Assembly: GCA_023898465.1 (NCBI GenBank)
Contig: CP060223.1
Span: 224,001 to 288,000, forward strand
Source of the DNA: Candidatus Nomurabacteria bacterium
GTDB taxonomy: Bacteria; Patescibacteriota; Patescibacteriia; HK-STAS-PATE-3
Length of the DNA stretch: 64,000 nt
Direction of reading: 5' to 3'
Position 1 is the stretch's first letter. Each line of letters opens with the position of its first letter. The notes beneath the pieces are model-generated. The model saw only the letters and a program-made list of their open reading frames with translations, was not told the DNA's origin and did not search any database. The position numbers and the translations under genes are program-made. This document shows, one piece after another, positions 10,883 to 59,045 of this stretch.

Positions 10883-11260
10883 ATGGCGGAAAAAAAGACC
10901 AAGGTCCTTATTGTAGAAGACGAGAAAATGCTCGCCGATATGTATGGGACGAAATTCAGTATGGAGGGGTATGAAGTAGAAAAGGCGAATGATGGTGCGG
11001 CTGGTTTAGAAAAAGCAAAAACCATGCAGCCGGATATCATTCTCTTGGATGTTATTATGCCAAAGATGGACGGTTTTACCGTGCTTAAGGCGCTGAAAGA
11101 AGAGTCAAGGTTAAAAGATACCCCAGTCATCTTGTTGACCAATCTAGGTCAGGACGATGATGTAAAAAAAGGGAAAGAGCTCGGAGCAAATGATTATTAT
11201 GTGAAATCAAATCACAGTCCTTCCGAGATCGTCGAAAAAGTAAAACAAGTTATTCAGTAA
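10883..11260 (+). CDS. single-domain response regulator (CheY-like receiver)
   Basis: KVLIVEDE...DIILLDVIMPKMDG...K receiver motifs. No output domain. Confidence 0.85.
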   Translation: MAEKKTKVLIVEDEKMLADMYGTKFSMEGYEVEKANDGAAGLEKAKTMQPDIILLDVIMPKMDGFTVLKALKEESRLKDTPVILLTNLGQDDDVKKGKELGANDYYVKSNHSPSEIVEKVKQVIQ

Positions 11261-46569: not shown

Positions 46570-46894
46570 TACTTGACAACCCACTTCACAGGAGTACACT
46601 AAATGCACAATTGGTGGCGATCTCTGCCTGGCACTGACCAGGATGTCTGGAGACGCCATGTTTTTGTATAGGCGTATTCCACCCTCCCTTGCCGTGGCGT
46701 TGGGGAGCGCGGAATAGTTCCGGGCTTCATTTCCTCACATGAGGAAAGCGGCTTTGTTGCCGTTTTGCACTTTGAAATGCATGGAGGTTCGCCATGACTT
46801 GGCGTTTCCGACTCTTCCTGCTCATGGCCATCGCGTTGACCATGACACCCCTCGCTTTCATGACCGGCTGTCAGGAGCTGCCGACGGAGGGGGA
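46570..46894 (+). repeat. direct repeat copy B of the promoter/leader/signal-peptide cassette
   Basis: See copy A. This copy lacks the segment of about 94 nt. Confidence 0.85.
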
Positions 46895-47492
46895 GACTTC
46901 GGTGATCTCTGATGAGTTGCCGGATGCTTCACCCTCAGCTCAGTCAAGCCCGATGACTTGGCCCTCTTCGATCCAGGATTTCAAACTCCCTTATGATGGG
47001 ATCCGGGATGCATGCGGGGGTCAGATTTGGAAGGTTGTTTGCGGGTACGGATGTGGTTATCATCACAACACAAACTACATGGCCGCCGCGTACCATTCGA
47101 TTGATCTTGTACGGCAGGATGCGCCGACCACTCATAGCGCAGTACTCGCTCCGGCGCGTGGCATCGTTTCGTTTGTCGGATGGAGGAATGGGTACGGTTG
47201 GTGCGTGGAGATGGATCATCGAAACGGCTGGAAGTCGCTTGTGGCCCATCTCGAAACGGATCCTTGGGAATTCGTCCATACCTATGACGACCTGCGGCAG
47301 GGGACTTTCCTGGGCTATGCAGGGAACAGCGGAGCGAGTACGACACCCCACATTCACTTCTCGGTGTGGCGGAACAACGTCACTCATACGCTCGATGGCG
47401 TATCGTTGATCAACCCGCGTCTAAATGGGCGATACAATTCCGGCAATGATTATGTTGCGCCACCGACGGGAAATCCGAACCCGATTCCTTAA
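46794..47492 (+). CDS. lipoprotein peptidase M23 family (LytM/lysostaphin-like peptidoglycan endopeptidase)
   Basis: Identical signal peptide and lipobox to the 43291 gene. HSIDLV (HxxxD) and TPHIHFSVW (HxH) are M23 zinc ligand motifs. Confidence 0.7.
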   Translation: MTWRFRLFLLMAIALTMTPLAFMTGCQELPTEGETSVISDELPDASPSAQSSPMTWPSSIQDFKLPYDGIRDACGGQIWKVVCGYGCGYHHNTNYMAAAYHSIDLVRQDAPTTHSAVLAPARGIVSFVGWRNGYGWCVEMDHRNGWKSLVAHLETDPWEFVHTYDDLRQGTFLGYAGNSGASTTPHIHFSVWRNNVTHTLDGVSLINPRLNGRYNSGNDYVAPPTGNPNPIP

Positions 47493-47668: not shown

Positions 47669-48682
47669 ATGAATCGTTTTTCTATCTTCATCGCAGTGTT
47701 CGTTCTTATCAGCGCAGTGGTTTATGCTTTCTTTTTTGCTACATTATTTGGGGAAAAGAAAGCTATTGAAGGAGTGCAGGGACCTGCTTTTATGTTTGCA
47801 ACCCTGCCTGACTCAGATGCATCTGCCGCGATAAGCATTTTTGAGATTCCTACAATGTCGAAGCGAAAGGCTGAAGACACATCTTTGCCAATGCATTTTC
47901 TTAAAAAACTAGGAGATCCGAGAGAGTATTTTGATCCCATACTTTCTTCAAGTGGTGCATATTTGGCTTTTAATCGTAATATTGGGGAGCCGAAACAGGA
48001 TAAGACAAATTTAGTAATACTTGCAGCTGACGGAAAAGAAAGGAGCGTGGAGAGCGGCTCTGCTGGAGATATAGGAATAGGAATGCTCACGCCCTTGCAG
48101 TGGAGTGCTGATGAAAAAACGCTCTACGCTTTTTATACACACGCAACTGAAGGTAATATCGTAGGCCTGGTGGCAATTGATGTGGCAACTTTAAGCCAAC
48201 AACGAATTGAAAAAATTGATGATCTACGTGTAAGTAACTACGTCTTTGATGAAGTCGGAAATACCTACGGTTTTGAACCGCACTATCGATTCCGCCCTGA
48301 AGACGAGGCTCAAACAACCTTTTATCGAATTTCTTTGACTAGTGGCGAAACAAAAAGCTTTACACTCCAGCAATCGAGTTTGGACGATCTCTTGACCGTA
48401 GATCCAAGCGGGAGATACCTCGTGTACGCAAACGGAGATGATTTTAATTCTCGTAACATTTGGATGTATGACATGGAAACCGGTGAGGAGCGCGCGTTGA
48501 CTGAAAATGCTGTTGTTAATGAAATTTTGCCCTGGAAAGATGGATATTTGGTATTTCTGGAGGAAAGTGTAAACACCCCCGCAGAAAAAACACTTGTATC
48601 ATACGATGTAAATTCTGGCATTCGCAAAGTTCTTTTAGAAAATGTTACAGGGACGTTCCGGCTTCTTGGTTGGTATCCCTAA
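47669..48682 (+). CDS. membrane-anchored PD40/TolB-like beta-propeller protein (paralog-type of 20627..21961)
   Basis: N-terminal TM helix. WSADEKTLYAF and DPSGRYLVYANGDD blades. Confidence 0.5.
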   Translation: MNRFSIFIAVFVLISAVVYAFFFATLFGEKKAIEGVQGPAFMFATLPDSDASAAISIFEIPTMSKRKAEDTSLPMHFLKKLGDPREYFDPILSSSGAYLAFNRNIGEPKQDKTNLVILAADGKERSVESGSAGDIGIGMLTPLQWSADEKTLYAFYTHATEGNIVGLVAIDVATLSQQRIEKIDDLRVSNYVFDEVGNTYGFEPHYRFRPEDEAQTTFYRISLTSGETKSFTLQQSSLDDLLTVDPSGRYLVYANGDDFNSRNIWMYDMETGEERALTENAVVNEILPWKDGYLVFLEESVNTPAEKTLVSYDVNSGIRKVLLENVTGTFRLLGWYP

Positions 48683-48715: not shown

Positions 48716-48746
48716 CTTGCCCCTCCCCTTAAAAAGTGGTATAGTC
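48716..48746 (+). promoter_or_regulatory. putative promoter with extended -10 (TTGCCC-17-TGgTATAGT) for the sensor-module array operon
   Basis: Hexamers and spacing seen directly in the sequence. It is followed by an untranslated leader of about 190 nt before the first paralog. Confidence 0.4.
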
Positions 48747-48940
48747 ATTGAGCTATTCTGAATATCTCAATATTCTAGCAACCGCGTGAAAATGTCAGCA
48801 AAAACAGACATCGCGGAGGGGGAAATCACTCAAGAGCAGCACATACTCTTGTATACTCAAGCGTCCCTAGTAAAAAGGGATGTTTTTTGTGTGCAAAGTA
48901 GCCTCGTAGCTGCCACAAGTTCTGAAAGGAGCGAAGGCGC

Positions 48941-49600
48941 ATGTTAGGTTATCTTTTGCTCATTATATCGGTTGTAGAGTTTTTTATTGGCCTGTACCTT
49001 ATTTTTCGCTATGAAAAAAGCCAGGCAACAACATATTACGGTCTCTTTGCAATAAGTGTTGCGATCTATGTTGCCGCGAACGGTTTCGGATTTACCCGAG
49101 CTTCTGATAACGAGTTTATTTTTGAGCAACTTGCTTGGTTTGGCGGCTTACTTAGCGCCCCATTTATCCTTGGCTTCAGTTATAGCTTTCCTAGCCCTAA
49201 AAAATATCCCACTGAGCTATTTCCGTGGGTAATTTGGCCAGTAGTGTTATTTGGCGCAGGAATTTTTACTTCAAATATTTTCCTGGAGAAAACGTATATT
49301 TATTCCTTTGCCGAAGGCTACACTGCGCCAATCGGTGTCTTTTTCTGGTTCGCCATTGCAGTATTTGCGATGTATTGGATATGGGCAATACGAAACCTGC
49401 TGTATACGAGATTGCACACAAGCGGTTTTTATAGGAATTTTCTTACCATTGTGCTCATAGGGCTTTTTTCATCACTGCTTATTTCAGCAATTTTTGATAT
49501 TTACATTCCCTTAGTTTCAGTCACGCGCTACGGATATATTGGAGCATTATTCTCGTCTATTTGGCTGTTTACTACCGCGTATTTAATGGTGAGGAAGTAA
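48941..49600 (+). CDS. standalone 7TM membrane protein, paralog 1 (homologous to the HisKA_7TM-type N-terminal sensor module of the downstream histidine kinase)
   Basis: 219 aa, about 7 hydrophobic helices. Conserved blocks (N/R)xFLxIxLIGLxxSLL(I/V)S and GY(I/M)G(A/P)L(F/A)SSIWLF...YL(M/I)(V/L)RK are shared with the other paralogs and with HK residues about 190-230. Confidence 0.7.
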   Translation: MLGYLLLIISVVEFFIGLYLIFRYEKSQATTYYGLFAISVAIYVAANGFGFTRASDNEFIFEQLAWFGGLLSAPFILGFSYSFPSPKKYPTELFPWVIWPVVLFGAGIFTSNIFLEKTYIYSFAEGYTAPIGVFFWFAIAVFAMYWIWAIRNLLYTRLHTSGFYRNFLTIVLIGLFSSLLISAIFDIYIPLVSVTRYGYIGALFSSIWLFTTAYLMVRK

Positions 49601-49601
49601 G

Positions 49602-50261
49602 ATGATTGGATATATATTACTCATTATCTCAGTTGTTGAAGTAATACTCGGTTTTTATTTGATTTTTCGATATGTAAAAAGTCCAGCAACTATATATTAC
49701 GGCCTATTCGCGCTAAGTGTAGCACTCTATGTAGGTGCAAACGGGTATGGTTTTAGTCCGTTTTCAGAAAATGATATATGGCTGGAAATAATTGCCTGGA
49801 TTGGCGGGACCTTTACCGCTCCTTTTATTCTTGGCTTCAGTTACTCATTCCCTTATCCACGTAAGTCCAATAAGGAAATACTGTCTTTAGTTCTTAGTCC
49901 ACTCGTTTTTTTCTTCGTCGTAATACTTTTTTCTAATACTTTTGTAGATCATAATAGTGTTATCAGCTTTGATGAAGGATTTCAAAGACCTGTCGGGGAG
50001 TTACACTGGTTTGTATTATCAGTATTCTTTTTCTATTGGGTTTGGTCTTTTATTGAACTAGTAAAGAGTCGAAAAAAATCCGACGGCTTTAATAAGAATT
50101 TTCTTCTTATTTTAATTATAGGCTTAGTTTTTTCTTTGTTGGTTTCGGTATTTACTAACATCATTCATCCACTTGTCGATGTTTCAAAGTTAGGTTATAT
50201 GGGCCCCTTAGCCTCTTCAATCTGGCTATTTATTACTGGGTACTTGATATTGAGGAAGTAA
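49602..50261 (+). CDS. standalone 7TM sensor-module paralog 2
   Basis: 219 aa. Starts 1 nt after the paralog 1 stop, with an RBS aggaag. About 60% identical to paralog 1 by eye. Confidence 0.7.
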   Translation: MIGYILLIISVVEVILGFYLIFRYVKSPATIYYGLFALSVALYVGANGYGFSPFSENDIWLEIIAWIGGTFTAPFILGFSYSFPYPRKSNKEILSLVLSPLVFFFVVILFSNTFVDHNSVISFDEGFQRPVGELHWFVLSVFFFYWVWSFIELVKSRKKSDGFNKNFLLILIIGLVFSLLVSVFTNIIHPLVDVSKLGYMGPLASSIWLFITGYLILRK

Positions 50262-50932
50262 TGAACACCTTTCATTTAGTTTTACTTTTTACACTTTTCT
50301 TTATTCACGCGACTCTCGCAATATGGATGTTGCGTAGATATGTGCAGACGCTATCCATTCGTTATTACTCAGGCTTTTTATTTGGACTAGCACTTATTGC
50401 ACTATTAAATGGTTTATTGCTGTTATTTGGCGGTCAGGAGAGTCAAACAGTCCTTCATAAGATCGGCTTTATCTCAGGCACCTTCACTTTTGTGATGTTC
50501 TTTATGTTTAGTAAGTACTTTCCAATTTCTACTGCAAGACCAAACTCCCGCGACATTCTTTTTTGGGTAATTCCGATTACATTTTTTATTCCATTCATAC
50601 TTTTTAATCAGCAGTTTATCCAGTCTGTGATTATAGAAAATGGAATAAGTAAGCCTACATTTGGAGTCTGGTATACACCATTTATGTTAGTTTTGGCCAC
50701 CTTTGTTCTGGGGGCTATCTATAATCTCATACAGAAATATAAAATAACCACTGAACTTGAAATTAGGAAGAACATTAGAGACATTACGGCAGTATTTTTC
50801 GTATCAGGACTCCTTGGCTTTTTGTTGGACGTTGTGTTGCCAAGGTTTAATGTTTATACGGCACATTACTTTGCCATTGAATCTTCACTTTTTGTTGCGC
50901 TAACTACTGCAATTATTATTGCAAAGAAGTAA
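50261..50932 (+). CDS. standalone 7TM sensor-module paralog 3 (divergent)
   Basis: 223 aa. TAATG stop/start overlap with paralog 2. Confidence 0.65.
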   Translation: MNTFHLVLLFTLFFIHATLAIWMLRRYVQTLSIRYYSGFLFGLALIALLNGLLLLFGGQESQTVLHKIGFISGTFTFVMFFMFSKYFPISTARPNSRDILFWVIPITFFIPFILFNQQFIQSVIIENGISKPTFGVWYTPFMLVLATFVLGAIYNLIQKYKITTELEIRKNIRDITAVFFVSGLLGFLLDVVLPRFNVYTAHYFAIESSLFVALTTAIIIAKK

Positions 50933-50933
50933 G

Positions 50934-51605
50934 ATGAAAGAGTTTCTCATCATTGCAAATTATCTGGTTGGAATAGGGGAGTTGATGCTCGCTGGATATT
51001 TTTGGAAAACAAACAGCGGCAGCGCAATTCGGAAGGTGATGGTGTTGTTGGCGTTTTCGACTGGTATGTGGGTCATTTTTACCGGAACCTTTACCTACCG
51101 CTGGATTTTGCTTGATTACTTTGATCTCGGCATATCATTTGTATATTTCTTTGGAATTTTGTTCCTTACCGCCTTACTTCATTTAGTAATTCTCTTTCCT
51201 CACAAGATTTTCCCGTTTGATAGGCTACATACAGTTTTGTTGTATATTCCAACACTCATATTAGGTTTTGCCGCTTTTACTCCAGCGATAATTAAAGAAA
51301 ATATCACTCCGTCGAGCGGGTATACCACAAGTTATCCCGGACCAGCACATTGGATGTTTAATAGCTATCTTTTTCTCATGTATGCAATGGTGATAATCCT
51401 ACTCATTGTTAAGATCAAGCGTTTTGATGGATTTAGCAGAGATAACGCAAAAACTTTGCTTTGGGGTATTATTTTAGGCGGCCTACCCATCGTTTTCTTA
51501 GATTTGGTTTTGACAACTTTGGGCATCTACCCAAATGCTGCCGTTGCCAGCCTTTTCACAGTTGTCTGGCTTGGGTTTACTACTTACATAATTGTACGGA
51601 AATGA
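50934..51605 (+). CDS. standalone 7TM sensor-module paralog 4 (divergent)
   Basis: ATG 50934 lies 1 nt after the paralog 3 stop. The track ORF at 50919 uses an upstream TTG. C-terminus ...YIIVRK. Confidence 0.65.
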   Translation: MKEFLIIANYLVGIGELMLAGYFWKTNSGSAIRKVMVLLAFSTGMWVIFTGTFTYRWILLDYFDLGISFVYFFGILFLTALLHLVILFPHKIFPFDRLHTVLLYIPTLILGFAAFTPAIIKENITPSSGYTTSYPGPAHWMFNSYLFLMYAMVIILLIVKIKRFDGFSRDNAKTLLWGIILGGLPIVFLDLVLTTLGIYPNAAVASLFTVVWLGFTTYIIVRK

Positions 51606-52288
51606 ACGGAGAAATAGTATTTTTTGATTTAATTTTACTTAGCGTTGTTGGATTATTAGAATTAGCCTTTGGGATTTATTTAATAGTCCGTTATGTGAGG
51701 ACAAGTTCGATAGTATTTTTTGCACTTTTCGTTTTCTTTCTTTCTTTGTGGGTGCTTACAAATGCGGCTGCTTTCGTAATACCAATACATAATGTCTTCT
51801 TTGATATTGATTCAAAGTTGAGTTTTGTTTTTGCAATATTACTTTTTCCAGCGCTATACTTATATGTAATTAATTTTCCCATCCCTACAATATTAATAAA
51901 TTGGCGTTTAATACTTTTTGTGTTTACTGCGCCAATACTTCTTAGTACAATGATTTTAGGGTCGGGAACGGTTGTATTTGGATTTGATAAATTGATAGAG
52001 AATCAGCCAACTATATTTGGAGAAGCTTTTTGGGCCTATTCTTTTTATATGTTGTTCATGTATGCAATTATTTTATTTGAATTAATAAGGCAGATTAATA
52101 AGTCCAAGGGTTCTCACAGATGGTATGCACAAATTTTATTTTTTGCTGTTTTCATTTCTGGCGCAATAGGGCTATTATTTAATCTTGTTCTGCCTTCGAT
52201 GTTCGATATTAGAATTGCTTATTGGATAGCCCCATCTAGTTCAATTATTTGGCTTGCTCTTGTTTGGTGGGCGACGCAGAGGAAATAA
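51602..52288 (+). CDS. standalone 7TM sensor-module paralog 5
   Basis: ATGA start/stop overlap with paralog 4. Conserved YLIVRYVRTS and C-terminal ...WWATQRK. Confidence 0.65.
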   Translation: MNGEIVFFDLILLSVVGLLELAFGIYLIVRYVRTSSIVFFALFVFFLSLWVLTNAAAFVIPIHNVFFDIDSKLSFVFAILLFPALYLYVINFPIPTILINWRLILFVFTAPILLSTMILGSGTVVFGFDKLIENQPTIFGEAFWAYSFYMLFMYAIILFELIRQINKSKGSHRWYAQILFFAVFISGAIGLLFNLVLPSMFDIRIAYWIAPSSSIIWLALVWWATQRK

Positions 52289-52290
52289 TT

Positions 52291-52959
52291 ATGGATTATG
52301 GTGTATACTTATTATTAGTTATTGCGGGCCTAGAACTTTGGTTGACAATATACATATTTACTCGCTACCAAAGAACAAAAGCTATTTTTTTCTTTGGACT
52401 CTTTACTGCTTGTGTGACTGGATGGGTGCTAACTAATTCTATTCCGCTTCTTTTTTCCTATTCAAGTTGGCAATCTGATTTTTTGCAACGCCTCTCGTTT
52501 TCTTTTGCTGCATTTATTTTTCCTTTTCTTTATTATTATATTCTTTTACATCCATTTCCAAGCATTGATATCAACAAGCGATTCATATTATTCACATCCC
52601 TCCCGGCCTTCTTTGTTTCTATTGCCACTCTCTTTGATAAAAACTTTGTTATAGGATTCTATGATACCTCAGTAAGGGCAACAATATACGGCGACTCTTT
52701 TTGGATGTATGCGGTAGTTATGTTGCTATTTGCAATTCTTATTCCTGTGGAAATAATTTTAAAAAGAAGAAGACTGGATGGATATTATCGCTACCAATTC
52801 AAATTATTATTCAGCGCCTATTTGTTTTCAGCGGCAGTAGGATTACTAATTAATTTAATATTGCCATATTTTTTCGACTTAAAAATTAACTATTGGCTTG
52901 GGCCCGCGTCATCGATTATTTGGGTGAGTATGGTTTGGTGGGTTATTAATAGAAGGTAA
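52291..52959 (+). CDS. standalone 7TM sensor-module paralog 6
   Basis: Starts 2 nt after the paralog 5 stop. C-terminal WLGPASSIIWVSMVWWVINRR matches the HK GFGPLSTLFLLFFISYAIIRHR block. Confidence 0.65.
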   Translation: MDYGVYLLLVIAGLELWLTIYIFTRYQRTKAIFFFGLFTACVTGWVLTNSIPLLFSYSSWQSDFLQRLSFSFAAFIFPFLYYYILLHPFPSIDINKRFILFTSLPAFFVSIATLFDKNFVIGFYDTSVRATIYGDSFWMYAVVMLLFAILIPVEIILKRRRLDGYYRYQFKLLFSAYLFSAAVGLLINLILPYFFDLKINYWLGPASSIIWVSMVWWVINRR

Positions 52960-52981
52960 TGTTTAATTGCGATTTTCAAAA

Positions 52982-53641
52982 ATGACAATAGGACATGTAG
53001 TTGAAGAATTTAAAAGTCGGTATATTAAAAGACAACTAGATCATAATTTTATTGTTTTAGAGACTCAAAATAACAACCAACTAAATTTATCATATAGATT
53101 AAGATACGAAGTATATTGTCTAGAATGTAAATATTTAGACGTGAATAATTATCCCAATAGGTCTGAAAAGGATGAGTATGATGATTGTTCAATACATTTC
53201 ATCGCAATAAATAAAAAGACAAAAAATGTTGTTGGCACAATTCGACTTATTAAACGCACTAATAGGAATTTGCCAATAGAGCATGATTTTGGAATTTCTC
53301 TGAATGGATCAATTAGTTCTAAAAAAGTTGTGGAGATTTCTAGACTAGCGGTTGATAAAAAATTTAGGAAGTCGAGTTTAAAGCATCCAAGTATTATGTT
53401 AGGTTTATTAAAAGCATGCTATAGATACGCCGAAGAAAATGGAATTGCAATGTTTGTAGCGGCAATAGATCAAAATGTATATAATATGTTAAAAAAGTTT
53501 CGTTTTTCATTTAATTTATTAGGGGAACCAAAACATTATATGGGTTCAATCTCAGTACCCGTGTTAATTGATATCGAAAAAGAATCGCAGTGGTTAAAAA
53601 TAGTAAATCCTGGACTATGGACATTTCTTTCAAGCAATTAG
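52982..53641 (+). CDS. GNAT-fold N-acyltransferase resembling LuxI/FeeM-type autoinducer / N-acyl amino acid synthases
   Basis: LRYEVYCLECKYL...EKDEYDDCSIHFIAINKKTKNVVGTIRLI...LPIEHDFGISL...VVEISRLAVDKKFRK follows the R.EVF...E.D.YD...(Y/H)(L/F).A......G..RL.P......E..F...E.SR.AV pattern of the Autoind_synth/Acetyltransf_5 families. Confidence 0.5.
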   Translation: MTIGHVVEEFKSRYIKRQLDHNFIVLETQNNNQLNLSYRLRYEVYCLECKYLDVNNYPNRSEKDEYDDCSIHFIAINKKTKNVVGTIRLIKRTNRNLPIEHDFGISLNGSISSKKVVEISRLAVDKKFRKSSLKHPSIMLGLLKACYRYAEENGIAMFVAAIDQNVYNMLKKFRFSFNLLGEPKHYMGSISVPVLIDIEKESQWLKIVNPGLWTFLSSN

Positions 53642-54276
53642 CTCATAAAATTGTATTATTCTATTTAAGACGGGCTAGCCACAAAAAATACCTAACATTT
53701 AGCTTTAGCGATCTTATTATACTCTGTCCCCCAAACGTGTTCCCGCCTAATTCGTTTACCACTGACCTAATGGCTAAGTGGCTAGTAAACGAAGAGATGG
53801 AAGGTAAACAGGTTTTAGAGATGGGTTGTGGAAGTGGATACATTTCGATTATTGCCGCACGAAAAGGGGCAAAAGTAATTGCAAGCGACATCAGCCCTAT
53901 CGCGGTTGATGCCGCAAAAATCAATACCATAATAAATAAGATAAAAAATGTCGAATGTTATTGCTCGGACTTATTTTCTAACTTAGAAGGAAAGTTTGAT
54001 TTAATTCTCTTCAACGCACCTTTTTTTCATGGAGAACCCACTTCTTTATTAGATAACAATTGGATGAGTAAGGATGGGGAGGTGGTCAGTAAATTTTTTA
54101 AAGACGCAAGAGAATATATTAATCCAATGGGGAAGGTAGTTATTACTAGTTCGACTCTAGTTAATCAAGATGCTCTGAAAATATTAATTAAAGAAAGCGG
54201 ATTTAATATTGAAAACGTGAAAACAAAAAATATTATTATTGAAAAATTTTTCTTGTATGAATGTAGAGCTTTTTAA
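53617..54276 (+). CDS. class I SAM-dependent methyltransferase, small-domain (HemK/Mtq2-like)
   Basis: The VFPPNSFTTDL entry motif resembles the Mtq2/HemK N-terminal motif. GxGxG is VLEMGCGSGYISI, followed by an acidic loop ASDIS and DLILFNAPFF (NPP(Y/F)-like). The start overlaps the GNAT gene by 25 nt. Confidence 0.7.
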   Translation: MDISFKQLAHKIVLFYLRRASHKKYLTFSFSDLIILCPPNVFPPNSFTTDLMAKWLVNEEMEGKQVLEMGCGSGYISIIAARKGAKVIASDISPIAVDAAKINTIINKIKNVECYCSDLFSNLEGKFDLILFNAPFFHGEPTSLLDNNWMSKDGEVVSKFFKDAREYINPMGKVVITSSTLVNQDALKILIKESGFNIENVKTKNIIIEKFFLYECRAF

Positions 54277-55021
54277 TAGAAATCAACCATTTATAACTAA
54301 AAAAGAACAAAAAATTCTCACAAAACAGAAAGTTTGTTTTATTGGATGTGGTCTTGCAAGTCAAGCCGCACTCCTTATTGCCAGGACAGGTATTGGAAAA
54401 ATAGTACTTTGTGATGGAGACAAGGTCGAGTTGAGTAATCTTAACAGGCAAGCATTTGACATTGGTGATATTGGAGAAAACAAAGCAGAAAGCTTAATGA
54501 GAAAGATATTAAGCATCAATTCAAATATTGAAGTGGAGCAGTATCCGGTTTTTTTAAAAAAATCGATTATTTCAAATGTAATAAAAGATTCAGATATTGT
54601 AGTGAGCACAGTTGATGCGGGTCCTTTATATTTTGAAATTCAGGAATATATTAATAAAAAAGGCATTATGGGAATATTCCCCATGAATATTGCCTTTGGA
54701 TCACTCGTATTCGTATCAAAAAATGGAAAGGGTGATTTTAAATCGTTATTTGGGGAGAAATTACCTGAAAATAATTCTGAATTTTTTTATCAACTTTACA
54801 ATAAACTTAAACAAAATGTACCAAGCTATTTATCTCCTCATATTGAAATCTTATTAAGTGGATTTAAAACAAACAGTCCAATTCCACAGCTAGGATTAAC
54901 GACTTTACTTACCGCATCTTTGATTACTGAGATAATACTGGCTGGGAACAGGGCTGAGCAATTATTGTTAACTCCAAGATTCTATTATTTTGATATTCGT
55001 GAATTCGTTCGAAATGGATAA
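54257..55021 (+). CDS. ThiF/MoeB/E1-like adenylyltransferase
   Basis: Rossmann VCFIGCGLASQ followed by DGDKVELSNLNRQ, the ThiF signature. The core is 254 aa with no rhodanese or peptide-clamp extension. Confidence 0.75.
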   Translation: MNVELFNRNQPFITKKEQKILTKQKVCFIGCGLASQAALLIARTGIGKIVLCDGDKVELSNLNRQAFDIGDIGENKAESLMRKILSINSNIEVEQYPVFLKKSIISNVIKDSDIVVSTVDAGPLYFEIQEYINKKGIMGIFPMNIAFGSLVFVSKNGKGDFKSLFGEKLPENNSEFFYQLYNKLKQNVPSYLSPHIEILLSGFKTNSPIPQLGLTTLLTASLITEIILAGNRAEQLLLTPRFYYFDIREFVRNG

Positions 55022-57785
55022 ATTGCTAATCCCACAAAATTTAGCACTTATTATATTGCTCTTCGGATATTTAAGTCTGATAATTCTTCTTTTGAGACGC
55101 GAGAACACAAGTAGTAGATTATTTGGTGCTACCGTTATTACTCTCTCTCTTTGGATATTATCAATTTTACTTTTAAATATCAGCTCCTCAAAAGAAGAAA
55201 TTTTATTCTTTTCGCGATCGTCATTTATCGGGCCAATTATTCTCATACCAACATTCCTTCTTTTTTCTTGGTATTTTCCGAAAAAAACTATACATCTAAG
55301 GAAAAGTATTATTATTGTCGTTTCTTTAACGGCATGCTTCTTTTTAATTGCGACGTTTACGCCGTATGTAATTCAAGATGTCACAATAAAAGTAGGTGAA
55401 GGAGTCAGTCTAACCTATCAACTTGGAACACTATATTTTTTCCAATTTATTTTTTTAGCATTCTCATTACTTTATTCTTTTTTTATTCTTTATAAAAAAT
55501 ATAAAAAATCAAAAGGCCTAGAAAAATTACAAATTAGATATCTTTTTCTTGGCACCGTTATTACTGCAGTATTGACCTTGAGTACTAACGTAATTTTACC
55601 AATTTTTAATTTTTCATCTCTTGCTGGATTTGGCCCTCTTAGTACTCTATTTCTCTTATTTTTTATTTCATATGCCATCATCCGCCACCGCCTCCTCGAC
55701 ATCCGTCTTGTTATCACGCGTTCCTTAATTTATTTTTTCCTTATCCTGTTCGTCGCAGGATCATTTACTGGAATTACCTTACTCGCAAAGTTATTATTTG
55801 AAGAATTTGTTGGTGAAATAACCGCTACAATACTTGTTTCTCTCATCATCGTTATTGGTTTCGAGCCATTGAAGCGATGGGTCTCTCGTTCTACTGACTC
55901 GGTTTTTTATAAGGCAAAAATTGACTACGCTGATGTGTTGCGGGAAATCAGCGAAATTATTAACCGTGAAATTGTCCTGGATCCGCTCGTCACCTCCATC
56001 AGCGCCACGCTTGAGAGTAGGCTCAAGCTCAAGCACGCGGGCATTGCATTGAAAAGCGCCAAGGGGGATTTTGTTGAATACATAAACCACGATCACTTTG
56101 ATCCCAAAACCTTTTCCAGCCGATCCGGTATGATCGGATTCTTACGTTTCACATCTCGTATCACCATTTTAGAATCGCTCGAGCGCAAAATTCAGGACAC
56201 GAGCGAAGGGGACGAATTAAAAGAGTTGAAGCGATCGCGCGAGGAAATGGAAACGAACCACATTGCCTTAGCTGCTCCGATTGTGGCGCAAGGCAAATTC
56301 AACGCAGTCCTCATCCTGGGGCCGAAACTTTCCGGTGATAGCTTCTCGACCGAAGAGTTGAAGATGATTGAAACGTTGACTCCGCAGATCGGATCAGCGA
56401 TTGAGAAATCCATGCTCTTCGAAGAGGTGAAGAACTTCTCCAGTCAATTAAAGGTGAAAGTTGATGAGGCGACAAAGGAGTTGAAAGAGCGCAATCGTTT
56501 CCTTGGCGCTTTGCAGGATATCACGAGCACCATTACGCACTCTCTTGATTACAAAAAAGTAGGACAGGACATTGTGGACGGAGTAGCCAAGAAGCTCGGT
56601 TACATCGGTGCCGTGCTCCTGCTCTATGATCCAAAGACTGGCCAGTCATGGGCTGAGGCAATTACGCAAACGCCGGTTACTCGCGCGGCAATGAAATTAC
56701 TGCCCAAGCCGGTGAACGAATACCATGGGCACGTGGATGAGAATTCCATGACCGACCAAGTTATTTTGACTGGTGAAATGCGCGAAAGTGATTCACTAGC
56801 TGAATTCTTAGCACCGGCCGTGCCTAAAGCTTTTTGTTTCGCCATGCAGAAGTTGATTCGCGCAAAGTATATTGTGGCAGTGCCAATCTATGCCGAGGGT
56901 GAAATTCTCGGTGCCTTGGTTTTTGTGCTCGGGAAGAAGAAAGAGGAGATCAGTAGTCAGGAGCGGGCTATGATGATCGCTTTAGGTGACCAGGCCGGAA
57001 TCGTGCTGCACAATATTAAACTCTTTGATCGCATCCAGGATACGAATAAGCAGTTGGAGCAGGCGAATGAACACTTGAAGCAGCTTGATCAAGCTAAGTC
57101 GGAATTCGTCTCCATTGCCTCGCACCAATTACGCACGCCGATGACTGGCATTATGGGCTATCTTTCCATGATGGTGCAGGGGGATTTCGGTAAAATGGAG
57201 CCGGAGCACACCAAACTGCTGACTGAATTGTTGAGTGAGAGTCAGCGCATGATTCGTCTCATCAACCTCTTCTTGAACGTCTCAAAGATTGAGTCAGGTA
57301 AGATGACGATTAACAAGCAGCCGACGCAGATTAAGGATCTCATTGACCAACAGATTAAGGATCAGAAAAAGCCAGCCGAGGATAAAGGATTGGTGCTGAA
57401 AGTGGAAGTTGATAAAGAGCTGCCGATAATTGAAGCTGACGGTGATAAGCTCATGAACGTGGTGCAGAACCTGATTGATAACGCTATCAAATATACAGAG
57501 CGGGGAAGCGTGACTGTTCGCGCCTTTCAGACCGATGGCCATATCCAGGTAGAAATTCAAGACACTGGCGTTGGTATTAAGCGCGAAGATGTGCATGAAC
57601 TCTTTGGTAAGTTTGTGCGCGGGTCTGGCATTGCGCAGATCAATCCTGATGGCTCCGGTCTCGGACTCTTTATTGCCAAGTCAATTGTGGAAATGCACGG
57701 CGGTAAGATTTGGGTAGAATCAGAAGGTGAAGGGAAAGGTACTAAATTCGCATTCACGATACCAATTACACAGCCGAAAAAATGA
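54990..57785 (+). CDS. sensor histidine kinase: N-terminal 7TM (HisKA_7TM-like) sensor, GAF domains, HisKA, HATPase_c
   Basis: N-terminal about 230 aa are hydrophobic and homologous to the six upstream paralogs. H-box SIASHQLRTPMTGIMGY. N/G1/G2 boxes NLIDNAIKYT, DTGVGI and GSGLGL. ATG 55014 would give an ATGGATAA start/stop overlap with the E1-like gene. Confidence 0.85.
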   Translation: MIFVNSFEMDKLLIPQNLALIILLFGYLSLIILLLRRENTSSRLFGATVITLSLWILSILLLNISSSKEEILFFSRSSFIGPIILIPTFLLFSWYFPKKTIHLRKSIIIVVSLTACFFLIATFTPYVIQDVTIKVGEGVSLTYQLGTLYFFQFIFLAFSLLYSFFILYKKYKKSKGLEKLQIRYLFLGTVITAVLTLSTNVILPIFNFSSLAGFGPLSTLFLLFFISYAIIRHRLLDIRLVITRSLIYFFLILFVAGSFTGITLLAKLLFEEFVGEITATILVSLIIVIGFEPLKRWVSRSTDSVFYKAKIDYADVLREISEIINREIVLDPLVTSISATLESRLKLKHAGIALKSAKGDFVEYINHDHFDPKTFSSRSGMIGFLRFTSRITILESLERKIQDTSEGDELKELKRSREEMETNHIALAAPIVAQGKFNAVLILGPKLSGDSFSTEELKMIETLTPQIGSAIEKSMLFEEVKNFSSQLKVKVDEATKELKERNRFLGALQDITSTITHSLDYKKVGQDIVDGVAKKLGYIGAVLLLYDPKTGQSWAEAITQTPVTRAAMKLLPKPVNEYHGHVDENSMTDQVILTGEMRESDSLAEFLAPAVPKAFCFAMQKLIRAKYIVAVPIYAEGEILGALVFVLGKKKEEISSQERAMMIALGDQAGIVLHNIKLFDRIQDTNKQLEQANEHLKQLDQAKSEFVSIASHQLRTPMTGIMGYLSMMVQGDFGKMEPEHTKLLTELLSESQRMIRLINLFLNVSKIESGKMTINKQPTQIKDLIDQQIKDQKKPAEDKGLVLKVEVDKELPIIEADGDKLMNVVQNLIDNAIKYTERGSVTVRAFQTDGHIQVEIQDTGVGIKREDVHELFGKFVRGSGIAQINPDGSGLGLFIAKSIVEMHGGKIWVESEGEGKGTKFAFTIPITQPKK

Positions 57786-58216
57786 AACAGGTAAGGGGGA
57801 AACAACCAAAACGCATCCTACTTGTCGAGGACGAGCCGCTCTTAGCAACGATGTATATGTTGGCGTTGCAGCAACGAGTAAAGGCTGAGGTGTACGGGGC
57901 TAAGACACGCGAAGAAGCGGAGCGCATTATTGAGCGTGTGAAGCCGGATTTAGTGCTGCTTGATCTCATGATTCCCTCGATTACCATCCAAGACACGGAG
58001 CAGGATTTTCATCATCCAGTAGGGCTGCAATTCTTAGCCCAAATTCGGAAGAGTCCAAAGACGCGTTCAATCAAGGTAATGATTCTCTCCAACCTTGATG
58101 CGGATGAGCAACGCAAGCGGGCCATTGATTTAGGTGCCGAGGATTACCTATTAAAAGCCAGTCTGCAGCCGCACGCGATTGTGGAAAAGGTAAAGCATAG
58201 TTTAGGGATAAAATAA
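57782..58216 (+). CDS. single-domain response regulator (receiver only)
   Basis: RILLVEDEPLL...DLVLLDLMIP...K receiver motifs. ATGA overlap with the HK stop. No output domain. Confidence 0.85.
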   Translation: MKQVRGKQPKRILLVEDEPLLATMYMLALQQRVKAEVYGAKTREEAERIIERVKPDLVLLDLMIPSITIQDTEQDFHHPVGLQFLAQIRKSPKTRSIKVMILSNLDADEQRKRAIDLGAEDYLLKASLQPHAIVEKVKHSLGIK

Positions 58217-58333
58217 GCCAGTCAATAATCTCATCCTTGACAGAGCCGGTGGTTTTTGTATACTTTCTGGCCCTGTTCTTTCCCATCGCGAATATCGGCA
58301 ACGGCCTCATTCTTAACATGTTTGGGAGGCCGT

Positions 58334-58531
58334 ATGTCGATTGCGTTTACTCCCACTGAGCTTATTCTCCTCGGAGGATTTCTCGTCTGGATCATGGCCC
58401 AAATCTATGCTCCAATGAAAGGTCGCCGCAAAGCTGTCAGCTTCGGCGCCATCGAGATTGTCTTCCTGCTCGTGGGTCTCGCGGTATTGCTCCTCGGAGC
58501 AATCACCCTTGCACAGAATCCTGCCTTCTAG
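58334..58531 (+). CDS. putative small two-TM membrane protein
   Basis: A 65-aa ORF from ATG 58334 with two hydrophobic helices. A TTGACA-16-TATACT promoter lies at about 58231-58262 and a terminator overlaps the 3' end. Confidence 0.3.
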   Translation: MSIAFTPTELILLGGFLVWIMAQIYAPMKGRRKAVSFGAIEIVFLLVGLAVLLLGAITLAQNPAF

Positions 58532-58548
58532 GCGGGATTCTTTTTTTA
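58510..58548 (+). terminator. intrinsic terminator (gaatcctgcc...ggcgggattc + TTTTTTT)
   Basis: GC-rich inverted repeat followed by a 7-T run. Confidence 0.5.
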
Positions 58549-59003: not shown

Positions 59004-59045
59004 TGCTGCTTTTCTGAAGCGCGAAAAAATGGTATAGTAGGGCGC

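Follow-up and report, generated by a model that had tools for sequence, protein, structure and literature searches.

What would a bacterium do with six sensor-like membrane proteins, three enzymes and a two-component system encoded in one tightly packed unit? The question is raised by a locus in a stretch of 64,000 nucleotides (hereafter the window; positions 224,001 to 288,000 of contig CP060223.1) from a metagenome-assembled Candidatus Nomurabacteria genome, whose contig is 1.08 Mb long. The organism belongs to the candidate phyla radiation (CPR, Patescibacteria), whose members are ultra-small, mostly episymbiotic and largely uncultured. An earlier note on this DNA had proposed the locus as an undescribed system. 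From gene content and homology, our preferred reading, to which we give about an even chance, is that it encodes a quorum-sensing-like circuit of a CPR bacterium, built on the enzyme families of N-acyl-cyclolysine (ACL) signalling and sensed by the seven-transmembrane (7TM) histidine kinase encoded immediately downstream (Table 1).

The gene product that the earlier note had labelled an E1 is not of the ubiquitin type. It is a 254-aa ThiF-like enzyme consisting of the adenylation domain only, with intact nucleotide-binding motifs and without E2, catalytic-cysteine or RRE domains or the CxxC zinc motif, and its nearest solved relative over the full length is AclA. In a phmmer search of the PDB, the best match was AclA (9egb/9egc), covering residues 5-244 with an E value of 3e-21 and 26% identity, and an AlphaFold2 (AF2) model of the window enzyme (mean predicted local distance difference test, pLDDT, 88.7) was aligned to AclA by Foldseek with a template-modelling (TM) score of 0.85 and an E value of 7e-19. 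The next-best solved relatives, MccB and PaaA, followed at E values of ~1e-13. The invariant DGDKVELSNLNRQ motif is present in the window enzyme, and both this motif and a C-terminal PQL motif are shared with the proteins of the Bacteroidota loci described below. The Rv1355c family model (NF005901), the one model at hand for the TyzB/OxzB/TrzS cluster of cyclases, matched residues 7-120 only, and weakly, at 56.6 bits where the cut-off is 476. PDB entry 9EGB, released in August 2025, is entitled “AclA from Tenacibaculum discolor in complex with substrate”, and by name, organism group and date we infer that it belongs to the 2025 report of ACL signalling in Bacteroidota. As summarised in two papers that cite the report, two enzymes encoded beside a luxR-family gene make secreted ACLs, which release the LuxR repressor and lead to density-dependent de-repression of adjacent, often biosynthetic, loci (Linares-Otoya et al., Nature 2025).

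The second enzyme, noted earlier simply as a GNAT, is by its family matches a FeeM/LuxI-like N-acyl amino acid synthase. It scored 58 bits with the Pfam FeeM model (cut-off 27) and 47 bits with Autoind_synth, and it keeps the family-invariant residues R41, D67, R88, E118, S120 and R121, including a conserved E-x-S-R core. It also passes TIGR03694, the PEP-CTERM/exosortase-associated acyltransferase model, with 139.8 bits against a cut-off of 111.95, as does the GNAT of a kinase-linked relative of the locus (L094). The equivalog models for acyl-homoserine lactone (AHL) synthases, on the other hand, scored far under their cut-offs (44 vs 250 and 40 vs 292 bits). The locus differs from LuxI/LuxR AHL quorum sensing in that its GNAT scores higher with FeeM and TIGR03694 than with Autoind_synth, and in that no LuxR was found in the window; phmmer searches with L030 and L039 queries yielded no LuxR-family homologue among all window open reading frames (ORFs) at E <= 0.01. 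It differs from the TIGR03694 family in its context, as Pfam and family-model assignments revealed neither an exosortase nor a PEP-CTERM context among the cluster genes; the partners are instead the ThiF-like enzyme, a methyltransferase and a kinase. A word-indexed homologue search returned the GNAT alone, and a sensitive search was required to find its relatives. Homology to the GNATs of the Bacteroidota loci is distant (25% identity over half the length, E 9e-9).

The third enzyme is a methyltransferase that scored 109 bits with the TIGR00537 (HemK2/MTQ2) model, whose cut-off is 87. Its nearest solved relatives are the N-methyltransferases GenN (a small-molecule enzyme), RsmC and PrmA, and its FNAPF motif is a variant of NPPY; these matches place it in the HemK2/MTQ2-RsmC-PrmA group.

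The combination resembles the ACL system in that genes for a short ThiF-like enzyme and a GNAT-fold acyltransferase occur together beside a receptor gene; in the window, the FeeM-type GNAT is encoded 616 nt upstream of ThiF with the methyltransferase gene alone between them. A FeeM-fold synthase and a ThiF-like enzyme are likewise paired in the acyl-oxazolone synthetases OxzAB (Pseudoalteromonas rubra), TyzACB and TrzAS (both Mycobacterium tuberculosis), where the ThiF-like OxzB, TyzB and TrzS carry out the ATP-dependent cyclisation of N-acyl amino acids. These characterised oxazolone pathways always have a flavin-dependent oxidase (nitroreductase), adjacent or fused, and are not tied to a sensor kinase. 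Another cluster, to which the stieleriacines of Stieleria (Planctomycetota) have been assigned, has synthase, methyltransferase and ThiF side by side as in the window; it differs in possessing a nitroreductase, in having no two-component system, and in its methyltransferases, which are C- or O-type on tyrosine, whereas that of the window is of the N-type. As the enzyme pair is a described biosynthetic module, known from ACLs and acyl-oxazolones, the term “undescribed” is too strong for the core of the locus. It seems apt for the wiring, which departs from the ACL system in several ways: a 7TM-GAF histidine kinase and a receiver-only regulator, to which the overlapping synthase genes would be translationally coupled, occupy the place of the LuxR-family repressor, a methyltransferase and six sensor-only paralogs are added, and the host is a CPR bacterium, all of which looks undescribed. 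No adjacent biosynthetic cluster is visible as an output in the window, another difference from the ACL system.

When species-representative genomes were scanned with a ThiF-subfamily alignment, 80 loci were recovered. Among the Bacteroidota-type loci, a FeeM-like GNAT is encoded within 2 kb of ThiF in 25 of 35, and in all four that were examined a LuxR-family gene lies between ThiF and GNAT, with radical-SAM or C39-ABC exporter genes adjoining in two; by their gene content, these ThiF-LuxR-GNAT loci are acl-type loci. Prevotella-like ThiF-GNAT loci were also observed on contigs binned as Lachnospiraceae, Methanobrevibacter, Firmicutes and Ruminococcus (L035, L036, L037 and L049), which are probably mis-binned Bacteroidota contigs and not true occurrences in those taxa. 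In metagenome-assembled genomes (MAGs) of Patescibacteria, Saccharibacteria and Dehalococcoidaceae, ThiF is followed by a co-oriented sensor kinase and accompanied by a FeeM-like GNAT in some and by an ANL/PaaK-like enzyme of ~510 aa in others. This arrangement, with ThiF and one of the two enzymes directly 5' of the kinase, was found in 12 distinct loci, mostly of Patescibacteria, and 11 of the 12 kinases carry a HisKA_7TM sensor; one of the 12 loci has a divergently oriented methyltransferase of another family. The ~510-aa protein that takes the place of the GNAT matches PaaK, GH3 and acyl-CoA-ligase models weakly, and is called ANL-like here with low confidence. In one Saccharibacteria MAG (L013, 12541-20682), ThiF and the ANL-like gene are followed by four consecutive sensor kinase genes, of which at least two encode the same 7TM sensor, so that several sensors beside one synthase recur, there as full-length kinases; a PlsC-type acyltransferase is encoded upstream. 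When metagenome loci were anchored on the GNAT instead (n = 78, many of them short), ThiF was adjacent in 17 and an ANL/PaaK-like gene in 23. In addition, fusion proteins join GNAT to ThiF (P0081) and methyltransferase to GNAT (P0070, P0074, P0105 and P0121). A neighbour-joining tree, computed without bootstrap, places the window ThiF in a clade of kinase-linked ThiFs; this clade, the AclA clade of Bacteroidota and a third, GNAT-linked one cluster together, and generic ThiF/MoeB proteins branch elsewhere.

These distributions bear on whether the enzymes might act on a peptide or protein. In this reading, to which the E1 label of the earlier note belongs, the ThiF-like enzyme would work as MccB, PaaA or the E1 of ubiquitin-like systems do and activate a small peptide or protein at its C-terminus, after which the GNAT and methyltransferase would modify the product or render it harmless, as happens in microcin C clusters. 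The rank of MccB and PaaA among the solved relatives is in keeping with this, microcin C clusters reportedly hold methyltransferase-fold and GNAT enzymes, and a 51-codon upstream ORF precedes P1. We nevertheless consider peptide modification improbable, as the enzyme has only 254 residues and is without an RRE or peptide clamp, E2, catalytic cysteine or CxxC zinc motif, no ubiquitin-like or Asn-terminated precursor gene lies within the packed cluster, and the GNAT is of the FeeM/LuxI-type N-acyl synthase and not of the RimL/MccE type. The GNAT-ThiF fusions and the wide co-occurrence of the pair indicate small-molecule chemistry instead.

An anti-phage defence island, with a Cap2-like E1 as in the cyclic-oligonucleotide-based system CBASS and a methyltransferase, would account for the low GC content and island-like character of the region and for partial PADLOC matches of ThiF to E1-E2 models and of the methyltransferase to mad2. 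The matches are limited to the shared Rossmann and methyltransferase cores, those of ThiF spanning only ~100 residues of models with ~600 positions, and the other cluster genes match defence models only partially, through the kinase ATPase and the receiver domain. The cluster contains no ubiquitin-like, E2, JAB, cyclase, nuclease or effector gene, and the partners conserved in synteny are signalling proteins, which makes a defence function highly improbable.

The kinase encoded directly downstream of ThiF scored 58 bits with HisKA and 101 bits with HATPase_c in Pfam, and shares 44% identity with the kinase found after GNAT-ThiF in a Patescibacteria locus (L012). With a receiver gene adjoining it through an ATGA overlap, it makes up a predicted two-component system. 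As the earlier note had stated, the receiver has no DNA-binding output domain. A second receiver-only response regulator gene is present in the window at 10883-11260, with an E value of 1e-14 to the cluster regulator and no kinase close by. There is precedent in Vibrio for a small acylated signal that is made by a dedicated synthase and sensed by the polytopic domain of a neighbouring histidine kinase, namely LuxM/LuxN and CqsA/CqsS; LuxN and CqsS are hybrid kinases that feed a phosphorelay to a transcription factor. The locus differs in that its sensor family (HisKA_7TM) is unrelated and its synthase chemistry is of another kind.

A kinase next to a biosynthetic pathway may also regulate that pathway in response to something else. 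The locus could be a two-component-regulated lipid or secondary-metabolite pathway making an N-acyl amino-acid-derived membrane lipid, an antibiotic or a host-directed effector, with the kinase controlling the operon in answer to a different cue, for instance a host signal or the state of the membrane; the 7TM paralogs would then be unrelated sensors, or else would confer immunity to the lipid or help to insert it. Tyrazolones, which are mostly cell-associated, lend this some weight, as does the recurrence of M23 peptidase genes beside these clusters, and synteny does not distinguish sensing from regulating. We regard this explanation as somewhat unlikely. The nearest characterised relative of the window ThiF is a signal synthase, at whose locus a receptor gene is reportedly always found, and the partner in all 12 kinase-linked loci is a sensor kinase directly downstream, of one and the same 7TM family in 11. 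The composition of the DNA, moreover, links the synthase genes to the sensor domain of the kinase and leaves out the kinase core.

This compositional link takes the form of a low-GC block. The cluster genes have a GC content at third codon positions (GC3) of 0.22-0.43, compared with ~0.45-0.6 in the flanking genes, and the right edge of the block falls inside the kinase gene, where GC3 is 0.10-0.40 up to codon ~275 and, directly past the membrane domain, reaches 0.5-0.68 from codon ~300 onwards. As the soluble enzymes are low in GC3 too, amino-acid composition is not the cause. A step from ~0.25 to ~0.6 between codons 250 and 300 of the kinase gene, at one and the same domain boundary, is shared by the window and the unrelated loci L012, L020 and L104, and apparently by L174, and so occurs in four lineages at least. 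An assembly chimera at this step was ruled out: the whole unit, all junctions included, lies within 13.4 kb over which an independent Logan assembly (run SRR12358676) shows 100% identity, and the kinase-regulator end is matched by two other assemblies. The eleven-gene arrangement is thus no artefact peculiar to one assembly. The simplest reading of the step is that synthase genes and sensor domain have been inherited or exchanged as one module.

Variable blocks of this shape are familiar from agr (the agrB-agrD-agrC sensor half) and comQXP, in which the signal genes and the sensor half of the receptor kinase vary together with a boundary within the kinase gene; the signals of both systems are peptides. 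By analogy with these pherotype regions, the step in the window suggests that synthase genes and sensor domain would be exchanged together and that signal and receptor specificity would co-travel. The evidence here is of a different kind from that for agr and comQXP, being a compositional step in distant lineages and not allelic variation among strains. A look-up for strains that combine the same regulator with a different cassette yielded nothing beyond this contig and two fragments of 1 kb.

Taken as a signalling circuit, the locus would work as follows. The FeeM/LuxI-like synthase, judging from its family, would N-acylate an amino acid. The ThiF-like enzyme would adenylate the carboxylate, and an internal nucleophile would close the ring to a lactam (ACL-like) or an oxazolone (Tyz/Trz/Oxz-like), with acylation and adenylation possible in either order; the methyltransferase would N-methylate the product. 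The 7TM domain of the kinase would then detect the lipophilic product within the membrane, and the signal would pass through the two GAF domains to the kinase core and end in phosphorylation of the receiver-only regulator, so that the output would not be directly transcriptional. The six kinase-less 7TM proteins would most likely tune which signal, and how much of it, reaches the kinase.

These six proteins form a family with the sensor of the kinase. Pfam matched HisKA_7TM directly in three of the six (P1, P2 and P4), and a shared profile matches all seven 7TM domains, those of the six paralogs and that of the kinase, at E <= 1e-72. P1 and P2 are 53% identical and P5 and P6 40%, and the remaining pairs, including those with the kinase's own 7TM domain, are 21-31% identical. 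All six end with a basic dipeptide right after the seventh transmembrane helix (TM7), where the kinases run on into an R-H-R-L-L-D-I-R juxtamembrane motif. AlphaFold predicts P2 with confidence as a bundle of seven helices, and a fold search with this model found no solved homologue, only generic GPCR-like similarity (TM score 0.5-0.68, E >= 9e-4), which we treat as a likeness of topology and not of descent. No polar residue is conserved across the 7TM family, which argues that these proteins are not enzymes. A word-indexed homologue search with the 7TM profile returned five proteins.

Could the six genes be decaying duplicates of the kinase gene, or silent gene-conversion cassettes for its sensor domain, and not encode working proteins? 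In favour of this, the genes are arrayed in tandem directly upstream and share one low-GC block with the sensor domain of the kinase itself, and the Saccharibacteria relative has several full-length kinases at the equivalent position. Each of the six ORFs is, however, intact over 219-228 codons, and we estimate from the base composition that 220 codons without a stop would arise at ~35% GC with a chance of ~1e-7; intact ORFs at 21-53% identity in such AT-rich DNA cannot be neutral, and the paralogs are probably expressed proteins. Each has its own start, four of them with a purine-rich Shine-Dalgarno-like motif inside the end of the preceding gene or in the leader, and each stops precisely after TM7. 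Remnants or cassettes are accordingly quite improbable. Most plausibly, given their relation to the kinase sensor, the six paralogs modulate sensing as co-receptors, decoys or sinks.

Several observations weigh against reading the locus as a signalling circuit of this kind. The ThiF-like enzyme is only 26% identical to AclA and falls in a separate clade, not nested among the AclAs, in the neighbour-joining tree without bootstrap, and the GNAT resembles TIGR03694-type synthases more closely than it does the partner enzyme of Bacteroidota; for both reasons, the product may be something other than a cyclolysine. Among the eleven cluster genes and their flanks no nitroreductase is encoded, nor in the kinase-linked relatives. 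The receiver lacks an output domain and has no evident target of regulation, L008, L013, L094 and L145 do not show the GC3 step, and the array of six paralogs was seen in this genome only. The synteny fits a kinase that regulates the pathway equally well as one that senses its product, and both the locus and its kinase-linked relatives are known from genes alone. As to novelty, kinase-linked variants may already figure in the primary ACL paper. CPR bacteria are generally considered to be without fatty-acid synthesis, which makes the acyl donor puzzling.

The layout of the unit bears out much of what the earlier note had described. All eleven genes (48941-58216, + strand) were found again with each one abutting or overlapping the next, and Pfam recovered the GNAT, methyltransferase, ThiF, histidine kinase and receiver-only regulator gene by gene. 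The packing supports an operon-like unit; close packing and overlaps are widespread across the entire window and hence ordinary for this genome. The extended -10 promoter proposed near 48.72 kb corresponds to the TG-extended site in Table 1. The leader that follows contains a terminator-like hairpin with a U-run behind it (48859-48885), which folds better than shuffled sequence (z = -2.8), and the upstream ORF of 51 codons (48792-48947), whose stop overlaps the ATG of P1; together, the two may constitute an attenuator. Searches of the leader against Rfam matched no family, and a riboswitch was accordingly rejected. The claim that no internal terminator-like hairpin occurs before 58.51 kb had overlooked this leader hairpin but otherwise holds, as the only strong terminator-like hairpin lies after the unit and the weak matches within the unit are at chance level (11 vs 9.7 +/- 3.5 in shuffles). 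That terminator may belong to a 65-aa gene and not to the operon, because this ORF (58334-58531), also called as a gene in the Logan contig, carries the terminator at its end and has its own promoter-like site (58237-58264), the region's best with 11/12 matches.

Table 1. Features of the eleven-gene unit and its borders, by position in the window; junctions are given for the most plausible ATG starts
Feature	Position	Strand	Assignment and evidence	Junction with next gene
Promoter-like site	48717-48745	+	TTGCCC-17-TGgTATAGT, TG-extended -10; 9/12 consensus matches; consensus match only	
5' leader, 195 nt	48746-48940	+	Contains terminator-like hairpin and upstream ORF	
P1, HisKA_7TM, 219 aa	48941-49600	+	Pfam PF16927, 34.6 bits; 53% identity to P2	1 nt gap to P2 (49602)
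P2, HisKA_7TM, 219 aa	49602-50261	+	Pfam PF16927, 41.1 bits; AF2 model with 7 helices, pLDDT 84.7	TAATG, 1 nt overlap with P3 (50261)
P3, 7TM paralog, 223 aa	50261-50932	+	Shared 7TM profile, E 1e-77; 21-31% identity to others	1 nt gap to P4 (50934)
P4, 7TM paralog, 223 aa	50934-51605	+	Pfam PF16927, 22.4 bits, below cut-off; profile E 4e-78	ATGA, -4 nt to P5 (51602)
P5, 7TM paralog, 228 aa	51602-52288	+	Profile E 3e-79; 40% identity to P6	2 nt gap to P6 (52291)
P6, 7TM paralog, 222 aa	52291-52959	+	Profile E 2.5e-82; ends directly after TM7	+7 nt to GNAT if TTG 52967, +22 nt if ATG 52982
FeeM/LuxI-like N-acyl amino acid synthase, GNAT fold (predicted)	52967-53641	+	Start TTG 52967 or ATG 52982	25 nt overlap with methyltransferase (53617)
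S-adenosylmethionine-dependent methyltransferase, N-methyltransferase type (predicted)	53617-54276	+	FNAPF motif; Pfam MTS, 70.9 bits	20 nt overlap with ThiF (54257)
ThiF-like adenylating enzyme or cyclase, AclA-like, 254 aa	54257-55021	+	Pfam ThiF, 102 bits	ATGGATAA, 8 nt overlap with kinase (55014)
Sensor histidine kinase	55014-57785	+	Pfam HisKA_7TM + two GAF + HisKA + HATPase	ATGA, -4 nt to regulator (57782)
Kinase domain HisKA_7TM	~55047-55703	+		
Kinase domains GAF (two)	~56163-57011	+		
Kinase domain HisKA	57093-57299	+		
Kinase domain HATPase	57438-57770	+		
Compositional step in kinase gene	55750-55920	+	GC3 ~0.1-0.4 upstream, ~0.5-0.68 downstream	
Receiver-only response regulator, 144 aa	57782-58216	+	Response_reg, 59.7 bits, sole domain, residues 12-137	
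Strong intrinsic-terminator-like hairpin	58515-58541	+	12-bp stem and T-run	

Some further features border the unit. The exact motif TGGTATAGT occurs twice in the 64 kb, at the cluster promoter (48737-48745) and at 59030-59038, a count that by itself is not significant, as 30 of 100 shuffles reach two; the second copy ends 7 nt 5' of the ATG of a P-type ATPase gene, which suggests a leaderless transcript for that gene. Upstream of the promoter, a gene for a 337-aa membrane-anchored protein without a family match (47669-48682) has a GC3 of 0.36, lowered like that of the cluster, so that the low-GC block may begin at ~47.4 kb. The cluster is closely preceded by a Peptidase_M23 gene (46794-47492), and others lie near the synthase genes of Patescibacteria loci L004 (6465-7223) and L008 (3045-3743); it could be a recurrent neighbour or merely a common gene in these genomes.

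We know of no cell-cell signalling chemistry in CPR bacteria. The locus ties this group to a signalling enzyme pair found only in 2025 in Bacteroidota, wired here to a different class of receptor, a membrane histidine kinase. A fuller version of our preferred reading, possible but doubtful, is that CPR bacteria have chemical signalling of their own, based on a cyclised, N-methylated N-acyl amino acid that an AclA-like ThiF and a LuxI/FeeM-like synthase would make and a 7TM kinase would read, with synthase and sensor domain in a horizontally exchanged pherotype cassette that recombines inside the kinase gene, and with paralogs that, as decoys or co-receptors, would determine to which signals the one kinase responds, possibly those of hosts or neighbours as well. 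The three-enzyme pathway is directly testable and would provide a candidate ligand for the HisKA_7TM sensors, an uncharacterised family. As the authors of the oxazolone work leave open the physiological role of N-acyl amino-acid and oxazolone metabolites, the locus offers a genomic hint that such metabolites can be signals. Finally, the step inside the kinase gene in several lineages suggests a modular exchange of signal and sensor specificity, and, if this reading is true, the six kinase-less sensor paralogs would represent a new kind of receptor accessory.

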